IMG/VR virus record: IMGVR_UViG_3300027984_000004
Length of the DNA: 64,000 bases
Source: an uncultured virus (IMG/VR IMGVR_UViG_3300027984_000004)
Lineage: Duplodnaviria; Heunggongvirae; Uroviricota; Caudoviricetes
Strand: one strand, 5' to 3'
This document shows positions 20,479 through 28,695 of the stretch, piece after piece; the stretch's first letter is position 1; each line of letters begins with the position of its first letter. The translations under genes were made by a program, and so were the position numbers. The notes under the pieces are model-generated. The model had not been told where the DNA came from and ran no database searches. It saw only the letters and a program-made list of their open reading frames with translations.

Positions 20479-21075
20479 TCATTGATACTCTTTTTTTATT
20501 TTTTCAAACGCTCTTTTGCGTAAATTAGTTATGTTAGCCCTTGTGCATCCTTTTATTTTGGCGATTTCCGCATCTGACAATCCATCATAAATTGACATTC
20601 TTATAATTTCAGCCGTTTTTTCTGGCAATGATTTTAAAATTTCATTTACAATCATATTATTAGACCATGCGTATTCCGTTTCTTTTTCATCTGCTATATA
20701 ATCGAATATAGATGTTTCACTTGTGTTGTCGTTTGCTGGAATATATTCTGGTATTGCCTTAACGCGTTTCTGTTCTTTACGCATATATGCCGTAACTGTA
20801 TTATTAATAATCATTGTCGCGTACGTTGAAAAAGCAACTGCCTTGTCAAAATCAAATGTTTTTGCCGCCCTAAAAAGCCCCATACATCCATCTTGGAATA
20901 AATCTTCATATGCACTATTATCTGCACGATATCCGCGTTCTGATAATATTTTACACACAAGCCGTTGATTGTATTCAATAAACTTATTCATTGCATCTTT
21001 ATTCCCTGAACGTCCAGCCTTTAATAATGCCATATTTTCACTTGCTGGCAAGCTCTTAGATAATGTATTCGTCAT
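20479..21075 (-). CDS. RNA polymerase sigma-70 family factor, sporulation-type (SigE/K/F/G-like)
   Basis: AMNKFIEYNQRLV, EDLFQDGCMGLFRAAKTFDFDK..AFSTYA, region 4 HTH. Confidence 0.88.
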   Translation of the reverse strand: MTNTLSKSLPASENMALLKAGRSGNKDAMNKFIEYNQRLVCKILSERGYRADNSAYEDLFQDGCMGLFRAAKTFDFDKAVAFSTYATMIINNTVTAYMRKEQKRVKAIPEYIPANDNTSETSIFDYIADEKETEYAWSNNMIVNEILKSLPEKTAEIIRMSIYDGLSDAEIAKIKGCTRANITNLRKRAFEKIKKEYQ

Positions 21076-21142
21076 TTTAATCTCTCCCAGTTTATTTTAT
21101 TTGGCCGGGCATTTTACCGTCCCGGCTCGGTTATACTTTATT

Positions 21143-21397
21143 TTACCAATCCTTATAAACTATATTATCTAAATCTAATATCCTATTCATTTTAGACATT
21201 TTTTTAATTGAAAATTTTATTGCCGATTCTTCGCTTTTATAATGGCCAATATTGAACCAGTAGCTATCGCCGCCATATGACATTCCATCATTTAATACTG
21301 CCGTTGCTATCCAGCTCCCATCCGTGCCATTTTTAAATATTTCCACTTCGCAACTTCCGTCGATTGAATTAATCTTTTTCATTTTTTTGCCTCCCAT
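21143..21397 (-). CDS. hypothetical protein
   Basis: ORF downstream of promoter motif, GGGAGG RBS. Confidence 0.55.
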   Translation of the reverse strand: MGGKKMKKINSIDGSCEVEIFKNGTDGSWIATAVLNDGMSYGGDSYWFNIGHYKSEESAIKFSIKKMSKMNRILDLDNIVYKDW

Positions 21398-21435
21398 TTT
21401 TTTCTTATACTGTATTATATGAATACTATACCATT

Positions 21436-21490
21436 GTGATACATAGAATACATTAAAATTAGGTTAAGAAATACATGGAATACATTAGAA
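21436..21490 (-). promoter_or_regulatory. tandem copies 6 and 7 of the phage promoter motif
   Basis: GTGATACATAGAATACATTAAAA (21436-21458) and ATACATGGAATACATTAGAA (21471-21490). Confidence 0.7.
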
Positions 21491-21582
21491 TACAATTAAA
21501 ACAAAAGGCGCTCATATGAGCGCCCAAACACGGAAGAAAGAAAATTAGGGAGGCACTAGCCGCAAACCAGTACACTATAATA

Positions 21583-22197
21583 TTATTCTTTATCTGGATT
21601 TATGATACACGCAATTTTTTTTATCGCACGTCCACGTGCTCGGCATACTGTGCTACGCTTCATATTTAACAGTTCTCCGATTTCTTTATCTCTAATTCCT
21701 TCTATATAATACATTTTTAAAATTCTTTGTTCGCGTTCATTTATCATGGATAGCATTCCAGGAGCCATTATTTCAGCAATCCATTTATCTTCTGTTTGTT
21801 TTGTATCTTCGATGATATCAAATACAGAATCCGAATCTTGATCAAATTCACGCATATTTCCCAATGCCGTAAATTCATCAACCTCATGTCTTTGCTTTCG
21901 CTCAGACCGCATAAAAATACGGATGCCGTTTTCAACAACTATTCCTGCATACGTTGAGAATGGCAATCCTTTGCTTGGATTAAATTTGTCTATAGCATTT
22001 AACAATGCTATTACACATGTTTGAAAAATATCCTCATAGTTATTGTGAGATTGCTTATAGCCAAATTTCGATACTATTCTGACTATTAATCTTAGGTTAT
22101 GTTCCACAAGTTTATCCCTTGCAGTTTTATCACCGGATTGAGCTTTTTCAAGTAATTCTGCCGTTTCTTCTATAGTAAGTGCTGGTAATAATGTCAA
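21583..22197 (-). CDS. RNA polymerase sigma-70 family factor, sporulation-type (SigE/K/F/G-like)
   Basis: ARDKLVEHNLRLIVRIV, EDIFQ...LLNAIDKFNPSKGLPFSTYA, REQRIL...EIGELL..RSTVCR. Confidence 0.9.
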   Translation of the reverse strand: MTLLPALTIEETAELLEKAQSGDKTARDKLVEHNLRLIVRIVSKFGYKQSHNNYEDIFQTCVIALLNAIDKFNPSKGLPFSTYAGIVVENGIRIFMRSERKQRHEVDEFTALGNMREFDQDSDSVFDIIEDTKQTEDKWIAEIMAPGMLSMINEREQRILKMYYIEGIRDKEIGELLNMKRSTVCRARGRAIKKIACIINPDKE

Positions 22198-23076: not shown

Positions 23077-23649
23077 TTAAATCGGCGGGTTATCTTTGTA
23101 AAGTCGTTTTATTTTTTTGATATATTTCTGTTCTATTTCTGGTTGAATACTTACTATTGTGGGATAATCCCATTCCATTCCATTCAGTGCTGTTGCCATA
23201 TCGGATATAGTTATTAACTCGCCTGCAACATCTTTTATTATCTTTGAAACAAACCCATAATCAGTAACATCGCCATCATCAATAAGCTGTTTGCCTATAA
23301 AACCGTACTCGTTAAGCGTGTTTTTTTCCCAGGCAATGTATTCATTCCAGACAGCTTGTAAGGCCAACCATTTACTATTAGGACTTGCAAGGGTTAGCTT
23401 CTCCTTTTTAATCAAAGAATCTATAGGATTAATATTAATCGGCGGATATTCCTGCAATATCTGATTATACATGACAATAACATATTTTTTTAGATTGCGT
23501 TTAGTGTTGGATTCAGTTATGTACTGGTATTGATGGAGTTCAGTAAATCCCTGTAATGCTAAAAACATAAAAAAATCACGCGAACTAGAATGAAATGCCA
23601 ATGCTGATGTAAGTCTTTCATCAACCTTCAACAACAATTCTAGGCTCAT
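23077..23649 (-). CDS. ferritin-like domain protein (phage type)
   Basis: ALAFH...FLALQGF.ELHQYQY..E; WNEYIAWEKNTL..Y; IIKDVAGEL helical-bundle pattern. Confidence 0.55.
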   Translation of the reverse strand: MSLELLLKVDERLTSALAFHSSSRDFFMFLALQGFTELHQYQYITESNTKRNLKKYVIVMYNQILQEYPPININPIDSLIKKEKLTLASPNSKWLALQAVWNEYIAWEKNTLNEYGFIGKQLIDDGDVTDYGFVSKIIKDVAGELITISDMATALNGMEWDYPTIVSIQPEIEQKYIKKIKRLYKDNPPI

Positions 23650-23653
23650 AAGC

Positions 23654-24772
23654 CTATCTCATTCCTGCCCCGGTTCCCGGTACGCCTCTTTTAAGCTCAT
23701 TGGTTGTATCCGCCTTGGCTTCCGTACGCGTGTCTAATGCGGATCGCGCTTCATTAACACCGCGTAAATAGTTTTCATTTGCAATTCTTTCTTGCTCAAT
23801 ACGTTTGGCTTCTGCTCGACGCATCGTCTCTTCCATAGCTTCTGCCTCTGCGTCCATTTCCATACGTGGGATGTCTGCTCTCATTTCGTTTGACGGCGTT
23901 GTTCTTGCCTCGGCGTATCCTTTTATAAATCTACCTGTACGTTTGCTTCTTCGTGGCATTCTACGCGCCATTTCCATATCTGTATCAGTTTCATATTCCT
24001 GACCATCAGCGCGATATTCCATTTCTTGACGGGTAGTTTCTGTTGCGGTTCTACGTGCTTCATCTCTTGCAACCTCACGCGCTTCTGCACGTATTTCATC
24101 TACGTTAACATTTGCGTCAGCTTCATATTCTGAACGATAACCACGCCGTCCGCGTCCAGTTCCAGGAACTCCACGCTTCATTTTTGAAGGTTCATGATAT
24201 TCTTGCCCGTCATTTCTATATTCATTATAATCATCACGATATTCATATTCATTATAATCTTGTCTGGTGCCGGTTCCGGGAACCCCCCTGCGCATCATGC
24301 TGTCATCACGATATTCGTATTCGTTTCTACGTGGCGCTGTGCCAGGTACTCCGCGTTTCATCGCGTCAGATTCATATTCGTATTCATTGTATTGTCTGGT
24401 ACCTGTCCCCGGTACGCCTTTGCGATTATAGGAATTATAGGCATTTTCCATGAGCTGAGGTAGCGGCCCGGGGAATATTTGTGACCAAGGATTGCTATAT
24501 TGACTGCCGCTAGTTTGAAAACCTATAGGTTGCTTAGTATCTCCACCTATAAATTTTTGCATAACTTCTTTTAATCCGACATCTTTCGCTTCACAAAGTA
24601 AATTCAATATTTCTGTAAACACAGTGGCAGTTGATAAATTTGCAATAGCCTGAGCATCACGCATCTCCATTTTGCCACCTGAATCTAACTTAGTTGAATA
24701 TTCTGTAAGTTCGCTTTCTAATTGTTTTATCAATTTTTTCAGACTTTCTATCGCTAAAACCTTCTTTCGCAC
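23654..24772 (-). CDS. repeat-rich charged protein with five (K/R)GVPGT(G/A) motifs
   Basis: 372-aa ORF; repeats visible in the translation. Confidence 0.7.
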   Translation of the reverse strand: MRKKVLAIESLKKLIKQLESELTEYSTKLDSGGKMEMRDAQAIANLSTATVFTEILNLLCEAKDVGLKEVMQKFIGGDTKQPIGFQTSGSQYSNPWSQIFPGPLPQLMENAYNSYNRKGVPGTGTRQYNEYEYESDAMKRGVPGTAPRRNEYEYRDDSMMRRGVPGTGTRQDYNEYEYRDDYNEYRNDGQEYHEPSKMKRGVPGTGRGRRGYRSEYEADANVNVDEIRAEAREVARDEARRTATETTRQEMEYRADGQEYETDTDMEMARRMPRRSKRTGRFIKGYAEARTTPSNEMRADIPRMEMDAEAEAMEETMRRAEAKRIEQERIANENYLRGVNEARSALDTRTEAKADTTNELKRGVPGTGAGMR

Positions 24773-25949: not shown

Positions 25950-27654
25950 TTAACAATAACCATACCCAGGCGAGTTATGCCCATCTCCATAGCAATATTG
26001 ATTTACAGGAGCATATGGAGTGCCATAAAACGGGGTGTAACTCGGTCTCGGGACTTTCATACGCTCTTTAGCAAGTTCTTCTTTTAACATATCAATCTCT
26101 GAACGGTTAAGCCTATCTTCAATTTTACGGAAACCTTCCTGTTGCGCAAATAGAAGTTCCTTAGTGTTTTGAAGGGATATAATTGCCTGGTCTTTAAATC
26201 CCATCCCGGCATCATAACGTACCTGATCCGTCAAACGCGCCTGATCGTAGAATCCTTTATCTGTGGCCGTGCGATTTTCATAAAAATAACGCGCATTATC
26301 CATTGACTGTGTATAAGCATTGTCTTTTATTTCTGTGCGCGTTTGGGCAAATTCGCGCATAAGATCTCTTTCCAAATCCCACATATGCCCGGTTGCGTTA
26401 AAATTGCAAGGATCGCAACAGTTATTATTACATCCTTTTTGTTGATTATTCATTGCACCAACAGCTAATGCCGGTGCTAACGCATTCATAGGATTATCAC
26501 TGTATTCTTTATGGCGTGGTTCGTCCCGCCGCCATATGAGGATCAATGCGAAAAATCAAATATTATATGTAGTTTTTTATCTACATCCTATCTTTTCAGA
26601 ACACTTGACATTTTAAAAGCATGCGTTATAATGGTACATATAACTATTAAAAAGGAGTTGTTATATGCATCCATATGCGCAAGATATTACAGGAAATAAA
26701 TACGGTCGATGGACTGTTTTATCATATTCACATAGCAAGGGAAATGGGCGAACATACTATGATTGCCAATGTGATTGCGGTACATTAAAAACTGTTGCAA
26801 GATTGTCTTTAGTTAACGGCAAATCACAATCGTGCGGATGTTTGCATCTCGAACGCGTAACAAAACACAAAGAACGAGATAAAAAATTATATAGCATATG
26901 GCATAATTTTATAGATCGTTGCTATCGCACAAAAAATCCATTTTATCAATATTATGGCGGACGCGGAATAACAGTTTGTGATGAATGGAGACAAGATTAT
27001 TCCACTTTTCACAAATGGGCATTCGAACATGGTTATAAACATGGGTTAAGTATAGACCGCATTGATAATAATTTAGGATATACTCCAGATAATTGCAAAT
27101 TTTCTACTAATTTAGAACAAATGCAAAATAGAAGATCTACACTTAAAATAACATATAATAATGAAACCAAAACAATGTTTGAATGGGCAAATATTGTTGG
27201 TATATCATACTATGCAATCCGCGAAAGAATAAAAAGAGGATGGTGTGCTGAACAAGCATTGACCATTCCATCAAACCGTACTAATCGTATTAATCGCATT
27301 AATTTACGTCAAGTTAGGGTTCGGCCTATATCATAGTCTACAGCATTACCTGTTTAGACCCGGCGCGCTCGTGTCGGGTTTATTAGTATCCATCTTCACC
27401 CGTTAGGCTCTGCTCTTTCTAAGGTACTTTTACTGGATTCTCTTAGCTTAGATCAGGATTACCTTGTGTTTTTACCATTTAGGTTCCCCTGAGTTCACGC
27501 CGTTTTCTGTAAAAATTTCTATTTACAGTCACATTTTTTACATGATTACAATTGCAAAGATCCACATACCAGACCACCAACCGTTGCGATCATCTCCTTG
27601 ACCTCCGGTTGCTGTCAACACATTTGGCAATCCTCCGGTATTTTCATACACCAT
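25950..27654 (-). CDS. intron-split membrane-anchored protein: exon 1 27654-27542, exon 2 26556-25950, 239 aa spliced
   Basis: Splicing joins ...GWWSGMWIFAIVI-I-FFALILIWRRDEP into one TM helix, followed by a CC motif and coiled coil. Confidence 0.8.
26605..26632 (+). promoter_or_regulatory. sigma-A-type promoter for intron HNH gene
   Basis: TTGACA-16nt-TATAAT, then AAGGAG RBS and ATG at 26665. Confidence 0.75.
26665..27336 (+). CDS. HNH homing endonuclease (intron-encoded, opposite strand)
   Basis: CQCDCG..SCGC, YYGGRGITVCDEW, SIDRIDNNLGYTPDNC...EQMQNRR. Confidence 0.9.
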   Translation: MHPYAQDITGNKYGRWTVLSYSHSKGNGRTYYDCQCDCGTLKTVARLSLVNGKSQSCGCLHLERVTKHKERDKKLYSIWHNFIDRCYRTKNPFYQYYGGRGITVCDEWRQDYSTFHKWAFEHGYKHGLSIDRIDNNLGYTPDNCKFSTNLEQMQNRRSTLKITYNNETKTMFEWANIVGISYYAIRERIKRGWCAEQALTIPSNRTNRINRINLRQVRVRPIS

Positions 27655-27805
27655 TCGACAAAATCACTTCCTTAAATGTTATTTTTATAACAAGTCAACT
27701 AAAGTTGACATATTATCGCTATCTTGCATATAATAGATATGTCCGGTTTAACTCTCCCGTTTTTCGGATCTCCTTATCTGGCCGCTTGTTCTGCAAAACA
27801 GGCGG

Positions 27806-28108
27806 TCAGCTTTCTTTATAGTACTTAGGATCTGAACCTTCAAATTTCTTGCGGAGACGCTCAAATTCTTTACGTTCTTCATCATTTTCATCAGACGATT
27901 CTTGTTTCTGCTGGCTTTGCTTTTGCGATTCCTTATCCTTCATTTCTTTTTTCTCAAAATCTTCTAATGCTTTAATATCCTTATCCTCAATCATATCCTG
28001 AACCATCTTGCGTTTTTGTGCTGGCAATGATGCAATCCCTGCAATAAGACTAGACAATCCAAATATTGCTAAAGTTTTTACCAGCGTTTCAGGTATTCCG
28101 CCCTCCAT
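27806..28108 (-). CDS. hypothetical protein, N-terminal TM and charged tail
   Basis: 100-aa ORF coupled to SOD-like gene. Confidence 0.55.
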   Translation of the reverse strand: MEGGIPETLVKTLAIFGLSSLIAGIASLPAQKRKMVQDMIEDKDIKALEDFEKKEMKDKESQKQSQQKQESSDENDEERKEFERLRKKFEGSDPKYYKES

Positions 28109-28695
28109 TATTCAACCTCCAGTGCTTTTGTTCTGCGTTCAACTACTTTCCAGCACAAATGTTTTACTGCATTCTCTATGTACAAATCTTGATTGGCAGG
28201 ATAATCCATCATAAATGAATGTTCATAGCAATCCAGAACAATCAAAGGATACATATTGATAATCAATCCGCAATCATGCGTATCTAATAAAATATTTTGT
28301 AGACTACAAGTCTTTTGTTCATATGAAGCTATACACCATCCACGGGAGGATTTTCCACAAGCGATAAAATCATCTTGCCATTCTTCTAAACCGCCAAAAC
28401 AATCTTTAGCCAGTCTATCGAAACATTCTCCAGGTTTTTCATTTTCTCGGCATAAATTTCTAAAGAATAACTCATGCAGTAATACGCTACTTAAATTATA
28501 CGATAATTCTGCCTTCAAACCACGATAATAGGAATAATTCTTATTTGCATTGTCATAGTCTGGATTGCTAGATAGTTTAGCTAATATTTCATTCACCTTA
28601 TTGGCATATCCTGCATAGAGCTTTTTATGAGCCTGAAATGCCTTTTCACTAACCAAACTTGTATTATATACAAAATCAATCATATCTATTTTCAT
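28108..28695 (-). CDS. Fe/Mn superoxide dismutase family protein
   Basis: AHKKLYAGY, LHELFF, SSRGW, PLIVLDCYEHSF (variant of DxWEHAY). Confidence 0.82.
   Translation of the reverse strand: MKIDMIDFVYNTSLVSEKAFQAHKKLYAGYANKVNEILAKLSSNPDYDNANKNYSYYRGLKAELSYNLSSVLLHELFFRNLCRENEKPGECFDRLAKDCFGGLEEWQDDFIACGKSSRGWCIASYEQKTCSLQNILLDTHDCGLIINMYPLIVLDCYEHSFMMDYPANQDLYIENAVKHLCWKVVERRTKALEVE

Follow-up and report, generated by a model that had tools for sequence, protein, structure and literature searches.

A group I intron with a variant guanosine-binding site in a transmembrane-protein gene of an uncultured tailed phage

How is a conserved phage membrane-protein gene expressed when its reading frame stops after 38 codons, and what does the interrupting sequence reveal about the guanosine site of phage introns? 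The window analysed here (the whole stretch of DNA under study, 64,000 nt) comes from a tailed phage, with terminase-, portal-, capsid- and tape-measure-like frames and an amidase endolysin. The gene in question, which we will call the host gene, sits in an accessory module on the minus strand, below the lysis genes. Its ATG is at 27654 (-), and unspliced exon 1 (27542..27654, -, 113 nt) runs into a stop after WIFAIVIM. An earlier note on this DNA had proposed that joining 27542 to 26556 restores the frame, and removal of 27541-26557 indeed yields an open frame of 239 aa with a single predicted transmembrane (TM) helix, in which exon 1 ends in phase 2 of Ile38 with U as its last base and exon 2 covers 25950..26556 (-). 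The alignment with intron-less homologues that the note had suggested as a check is equally clear: the relative in locus L002 is 85% identical to the spliced protein over 236 residues with no gap at the junction, and the intron-less proteins P0005 and P0006 also cross it ungapped, with an identical 23 residues spanning it. Scored against L002, the join 27542|26556 ranks first of 32 in-frame U...G pairs within ~30 nt.

The intron site lies inside the best-conserved 10-residue window of the protein, residues 33-42, which is the single predicted TM helix (15 aligned homologues). The family comprises 76 clusters at 50% identity and extends to a distant form in other gut-type contigs (L053-L056). 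The claim of the earlier note that the host gene is conserved is thus well founded, given this best-conserved window, the number of clusters and the four different introns found in the stretch; the gene may also be functionally important. The protein has no usable match in Pfam, PHROGs, NCBIfam or Atlas, and the literature searched (mostly open-access papers) holds nothing on the gene.

The intron (26557..27541, -) is 985 nt long and IA-like in its subgroup, and every coordinate and helix given for it in the earlier note (P1, P10, P3, P7 and the terminal G) is present. P1 (27529..27545, -), read from the sequence, puts a U.G where the 5' splice site lies and contains the internal guide AAAAAUGUGA (27538-27529, -), which also forms P10 with exon 2 and pairs at 10 of 10 positions with the ligated junction, U.G at the cut included. 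It is followed by a P2 hairpin (27507..27528, -) and by the 5' strand of P3 (27496..27502, -), which pairs with 27367-27361; five of the seven P3 pairs change on both sides while the helix stays 100% paired. The P4-P5-P6-P6a domain (27419..27492, -) shows two-sided changes in P6a relative to the sister intron in locus L034. The 5' strand of P7, R (27404..27410, -), reads G262, bulged A263, G264 C265 C266 U267 A268 in Tetrahymena numbering; between it and the 3' strand of P3 lie the hairpin P7.1 and ACACGAG, a linker conserved in this family of introns (27368..27402, -). P8 (27335..27360, -) leads into J8/7 and the 3' strand of P7, S (27323..27334, -, with S itself at 27328-27323: U307 A308 G309 G310 C311 C312). 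The 5' arm of P9 (27308..27322, -) pairs with 26609-26599 around an endonuclease cassette, in a fold made without the insert. The terminal hairpin, here P9.1 (26567..26586, -), has the loop AUAAAAAA with A at a position that is G or A among these introns, and the terminal G is 26557 (-).

How well do independent searches support this fold? The Infernal search that the earlier note had called for gave a divided answer. The Rfam model RF00028 finds nothing when the whole window or 3 kb is searched, and matches only a 281-nt query (44.7 bits, E 1.8e-10), below the gathering score of 50, which is a database threshold and not a biological criterion. A model built from 17 related cores scores the window intron at 152 bits, a value that is high by construction as its own core is included. 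In an alignment of these cores 95.5% of cells are paired and both sides vary in 16 of 26 pairs; none of 500 shuffles scores as high, for a structure that was drawn from those same sequences. The guanosine-binding pair G264:C311 with bulged 263 is invariant in all 17. Subgroup IA (IA1/IA2) is characterised by one or more additional hairpins between P7 and P3 and by a P9 domain that is extended; of such hairpins, P7.1 is 87% paired in the 17 cores and P7.2 is not evident. The core of the sister in L034, which has no HNH gene, is 84% identical and shows two-sided changes in P6a, P7 and P8. A blastn search of the core against 50,697 phage records returned two short matches; contigs from three DNA runs, two of which may be the source of the window, showed no exons joined at the splice sites, and among them a contig of low depth carries a related HNH-less intron that agrees with L034. 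At the level of sequence, then, a group I intron with a complete core, compensatory changes and a precise insertion after U in a TM-coding stretch is established, and self-splicing would, with high confidence, restore the TM protein.

The window P7 is GCCUA/UAGGC in place of the usual GACUA/UAGUC, so that A265:U310 becomes C265:G310 while G264:C311 stays intact. In Tetrahymena numbering A261-A265-U310 forms a base-triple layer around the guanosine (passages of PMC10020454), and since C265:G310 alters this triple, the activity of the intron could be low. Among the 17 related cores, whose P7 is 100% paired, the pair is C-G in two and A-U in fifteen, with a further two-sided change, A266:U309, in L034. 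When variant S strands were sought together with a terminal hairpin, at least 104 loci were returned; among the matches listed, in 76 clusters, all are UAUGC and none UAGGC (0/104), and 93 of the 104 have the matching GCAUA upstream. The 3' exons of these introns, by our reading of their translations, resemble tape-measure, terminase, capsid, reductase and polymerase proteins, and there are annotated examples as well. The scans for variant and for canonical P7 (at least 104 and at least 117 loci) give no frequency ratio. C265:G310 is widespread in this phage clan and also occurs in a published intron (TMP-IVS3b, below), and is therefore a common alternative, only the GCCUA spelling being rare: GCCUA/UAGGC makes up 1 of 19 in another count, that one being the window's own record, and was seen only in the window phage. 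The earlier note was right that the change is a true compensatory pair, and implied a greater rarity than it has, as C265:G310 is the norm in a large clan. RF00028 detects 1 of 20 tested loci of the GCAUA clan at E<=0.01, and the clan as such is not reported in the literature searched (mostly open-access papers). The window core itself falls outside it, with G303, C266:G309 and a grouping with the introns of L051 and L065, and shares only C265:G310 and loop A with it.

Searching for R and S spelled exactly as in the window yielded 24 loci, and on reading not one of them resembled an intron. A pattern scan of 401 genomes gave 8 matches against 9 control matches in 6 genomes, with only L385 an intron among the 4 matches read in context. 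J8/7 position 303 is A in 85 of 104 GCAUA-clan loci (L156-L259) and in 2 of 117 canonical ones, among the matches listed; it is not strictly tied to P7, as the window and L034 have G and L303 has A. KX077891.1 (L377, 2617-2908) contains a GCAUA-type intron that carries no annotation and lies between two CDSs, which are the annotated halves of a tape-measure gene.

The identity of pair 265:310 is mirrored in the terminal hairpin, one loop position of which could be either A or G in both P7 scans. Among the matches listed, the loop base is A in 104 of 104 UAUGC introns and G in 116 of 117 UAGUC introns, and it is A in the window (GCCUA). In a stricter set of 198 matches in 143 clusters (drawn from all fetched loci by requiring that R match, that the surroundings be J8/7-like and that the hairpin pair; five copies of the window were removed), the loop base is concordant with pair 265:310 in 143 of 143 clusters, and not with 266:309. 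By R and loop the clusters are GACUA/G (73), GAGUA/G (1), GCAUA/A (65) and GCGUA/A (4). The spellings GAGUA, GCGUA and GCCUA sort by 265:310, indicating that the loop base follows this pair whatever 266:309 is. The one exception, L307, has a canonical S with loop A; its R was not located, which places it outside the filter. How many independent events does this represent? A quick tree was built from 117 cores of the 150 extracted (192 columns, with the variable P7 columns masked and the loop not included; near-duplicates and cores >330 nt, L045 among them, were left out). It groups the window and L034 with the canonical L051 and L065 (SH-aLRT 99), puts 55 of 57 GCAUA rows on one side, and forces four changes of P7 label, gains and a reversal, at each of which the loop base matches (A in window/L034, A in L233, G in L295/L303 and A in the clan). 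The independent evidence amounts to ~4 events, because most concordant clusters fall in two clades, and mosaic cores could mimic these forced changes.

On chemical grounds the minor groove of C-G suits an A, and that of A-U a G; an L9.1-P7 contact was reportedly proposed for phage T4 sunY, and may anticipate the one considered here. A peripheral purine, G358, occupies the minor groove of P7 in Tetrahymena, and Twort is reported to have a similar contact (passages of bioRxiv 2021.08.11.455951). The literature searched (mostly open-access papers) holds no report of loop-P7 covariation. We propose with moderate confidence, from the covariation, that the loop base and P7 form a tertiary contact.

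What occupies the rest of the intron? Two thirds of it, inside the P9 loop, is filled by a gene for a putative HNH-family endonuclease (26665..27336, +; 223 aa, 672 nt), antisense to the intron and with an intact frame, which the earlier note's description of the intron had overlooked. The protein matches PHROG 374 at E 6e-64, and also PHROG 3377 and 2081, has no Pfam or PDB match, and carries all 43 invariant columns of a 9-row family alignment. Histidine is the usual general base and catalytic residue of HNH enzymes; here it is replaced by arginine in an invariant D131-R132, and D-R-I-D/N is found in 9 of 9 aligned members. The protein is accordingly termed HNH-like by profile only. P0012, the nearest relative (61%), lacks the final 13 codons of the window gene, which read antisense through P9, S and J8/7. 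The family is very large (3413 matches at E<=1e-30 among 8000 scored). Among 80 of its loci 12 have an intron core, one of them antisense (L115), and the antisense layout is uncommon but not new. L115 itself (158-2012, -) is a capsid-like region with several intron-like elements, one of which has an antisense HNH of the same family in P8.

The HNH gene is preceded by a promoter, TTGACA-16-TATAAT (26605..26632, +), that agrees with the sigma-70-type consensus at 12 of 12 positions and whose -35 box lies on the strand opposite the 3' arm of P9; a ribosome site, AAAGGAG, follows at 26651. A second 12/12 site, TTGACA-18-TATAAT (27705..27734, +), lies antisense just upstream of the host gene, is found in the same place in L002 and L042, and in L042 precedes a free-standing HNH gene. 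Exact TTGACA/TATAAT promoters number three in 64 kb, two of them at the intron locus; loose matches are at chance level (7 vs 8.8), and only the two 12/12 sites are used here. In the region 27705-27822 (+) the second promoter is followed by ~80 nt that comprise two hairpins, the linker CUCCUUAU and an end resembling a terminator; the linker is anti-Shine-Dalgarno-like, the folding z of the region is -4.0 and L002 has the same promoter and layout. It is possible that this is a small antisense RNA or the remnant of a lost cassette.

Is the insertion in this gene an accident? Among 19 distinct loci with a readable TM region (17 close and 2 distant; L050 and L052, which start below the TM region, were left out) four have an intron, and no two of these share a site: relative to the window (0), the intron lies at -14 nt in L034, at -3 in L051 and at +12 or +15 in L047, a span of ~26-29 nt. 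The intron in L051 is complete (273 nt, RF00028 90.8 bits, canonical P7), with an open spliced frame; the sites in L034 and L047 rest on 3' structure and frame, because these introns are cut by contig ends. Three of the four have no HNH gene in their readable part, and in L034 and L047 a short spacer sits between the same P9 arms, as loss of such a gene would produce. In L045 the next gene is also split, by a fifth intron (36 bits). Free-standing members of the HNH family occur just twice in the 87 kb of the 20 module loci, in both cases abutting the host gene antisense, upstream in L042 and downstream in L044. Descent of the intron HNH from these two genes was considered and rejected, as they rank 90 and 119 of 122 and a quick 39-row tree gives three changes; the three gene-linked HNHs are not one clade.

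The earlier note had listed DNA-metabolism, terminase and lysin genes as the usual hosts of phage introns, a list that is too narrow, since published introns also include ones in capsid, tail and tape-measure genes. Why core genes alone are colonised by phage introns is a question raised in a recent survey (passages of PMC11878797), and four introns within a single short TM stretch of this accessory gene, with a fifth next door in L045, are a counter-example to that pattern. No report of a hotspot in an accessory TM gene was found in the literature searched (mostly open-access papers). The hotspot singles out a common but unstudied module. Within the module we observe an Fe/Mn superoxide dismutase-like gene (28108-28695, -), a ferritin-like fold (23077-23649, -; Atlas TM 0.74 to a ferritin cluster, a lead only) and two tandem sigma-70 family genes (20479-22197, -) that are nearest to SigG/SigK/SigF, below curated cut-offs. 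The frame at 23654-24772 (-) encodes a protein of 372 aa in which the motif KRGVPGTG recurs and other repeats are rich in Tyr/Glu; it has no family match. Sporulation-like sigma factors can alter sporulation (PMC9429907). Any role in host dormancy or stress would be a guess.

Could the loop base and the P7 pair be nothing but family marks of an intron that splices, inherited together with no contact between them, the P7 spelling being ordinary tolerated covariation? The confinement of nearly all GCAUA rows to one clade fits such co-inheritance, as does L307, which breaks the rule, and recombination of cores could carry both marks at once. We nevertheless consider this unlikely, since each of the four forced changes brought the matching loop base with it, the rare spellings (GAGUA with loop G, GCGUA and GCCUA with loop A) sort by 265:310 alone, and R, S and the loop lie far apart, with ~750 nt from S to the loop in the window. 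Nor does the intron look like one in decay or of poor activity, in which the altered guanosine site and an antisense transcript through S and P3 would suppress splicing and leave the host gene effectively off. Both exons are intact and close to the intron-less protein, the 10-bp guide is perfect, the changes relative to L034 are two-sided, and introns of the related C265:G310 clan interrupt genes which, read from their translations, are terminase, capsid, tape-measure and polymerase-like and are required by a phage. The Rfam score below gathering, the rarity of GCCUA (absent from the 104 matches listed) and an HNH transcript that must run antisense through the P7 3' strand and J8/7 would fit decay, which on balance is very unlikely.

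A further question is whether the HNH gene targets the host gene at all, or is a cassette carried in a tolerant loop while the intron spreads only with its phage. The size of the HNH family speaks for a mere cassette, and so do the scatter of the three gene-linked HNHs over the tree, the arginine at the usual general base and the three of four host-gene introns with no such gene in their visible part. We find this doubtful: the sole two family members in the 87 kb of module loci abut the host gene antisense, the window HNH has an intact frame and a perfect promoter, and the P9 arms retained in L034 and L047 are what gene loss would leave.

The reading that we prefer, and regard as highly probable on the strength of sequence comparisons, is that a late or accessory phage gene carries a group IA-type intron which is functional and mobile, a reading with splicing, homing and the loop-P7 contact as its parts. 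The RNA would self-splice by the two-step guanosine pathway, with G264:C311 intact, and so restore the TM helix in place of a mere 38-aa peptide. Transcription of the HNH gene by the host vegetative RNA polymerase would start at the antisense promoter and be uncoupled from that of the host gene; this antisense transcription may damp splicing while it is running. The enzyme would nick or cut intron-less alleles near the site, allowing the intron to spread by homing, and we suggest with moderate confidence that homing depends on an HNH enzyme expressed in this independent way. The loop base of the terminal hairpin would buttress pair 265:310 from the minor groove, G on A-U and A on C-G, and GCCUA/UAGGC in the window would be an independent switch from A-U to C-G, tolerated because the loop base switched too.

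A wider reading, which we consider possible and put forward tentatively, is that the guanosine site of phage group I introns comes in two architectures that can replace each other, one combining A265:U310 with a G in the loop and the other C265:G310 with an A, and that the tertiary contact joining pair and loop has switched several times. The window intron would be a natural intermediate that pins the contact to 265:310, the C:G type would be a large clan mostly missed by the standard model, and the accessory TM codons would be an intron/endonuclease hotspot like those of core genes. For the class of ribozymes that has been studied best, this offers a precise structural hypothesis in the form of a three-way covariation around the guanosine site. 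Many phage introns escape RF00028, as the 1 of 20 detected shows, so that split genes are annotated as fragments. If the hotspot reading is true, an unstudied module would matter in competition between co-infecting phages.

How does the locus compare with known systems? It shares with the guanosine site of RF00028 and Tetrahymena the P1-P10 layout, G264:C311, bulged 263 and the terminal G (passages of PMC10020454 and PMC9943679), and differs in that A265:U310 is C:G and in its score (44.7 vs gathering 50). The closest likeness in P7 is TMP-IVS3b of a Bacillus cereus-group prophage (IA1; PMC2504315), which like the window has C265:G310 and loop A; as we read it from plasmid pBWB404, its P7 is GCAUA/UAUGC. 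In passages of its paper related introns are described as adapting P1 to different sites of one gene, and the passages searched carry no remark on P7 (PMC2504315). It differs from the window in residing in a tape-measure gene with no complete endonuclease gene (same source), and the window core groups with canonical-P7 introns and not with the GCAUA clan (TMP-IVS3b itself being outside the tree).

A further comparison is with collaborative homing, as reviewed for the S-PM2 psbA intron with the free-standing F-CphI (passages of PMC2988022 and PMC3984707). The loci described here include an intron-less host gene beside a free-standing HNH gene (L042, L044), introns with no reading frame (L051, complete; L034 and L047, partial) and a composite (the window). 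Unlike that system, the three HNHs are not one clade and the introns occupy different sites. The host-gene set resembles stages of collaborative homing, a likeness that does not prove that path. The major-capsid intron of mycobacteriophage LittleE is spliced and, like the window, has a bottom-strand endonuclease frame; it differs in its capsid gene and LAGLIDADG-related nuclease, and the passages of its paper that were searched contain no promoter or P7 analysis (PMC3706429). Antisense intron endonucleases therefore have precedents in LittleE and L115, and P7 variants have precedents too.
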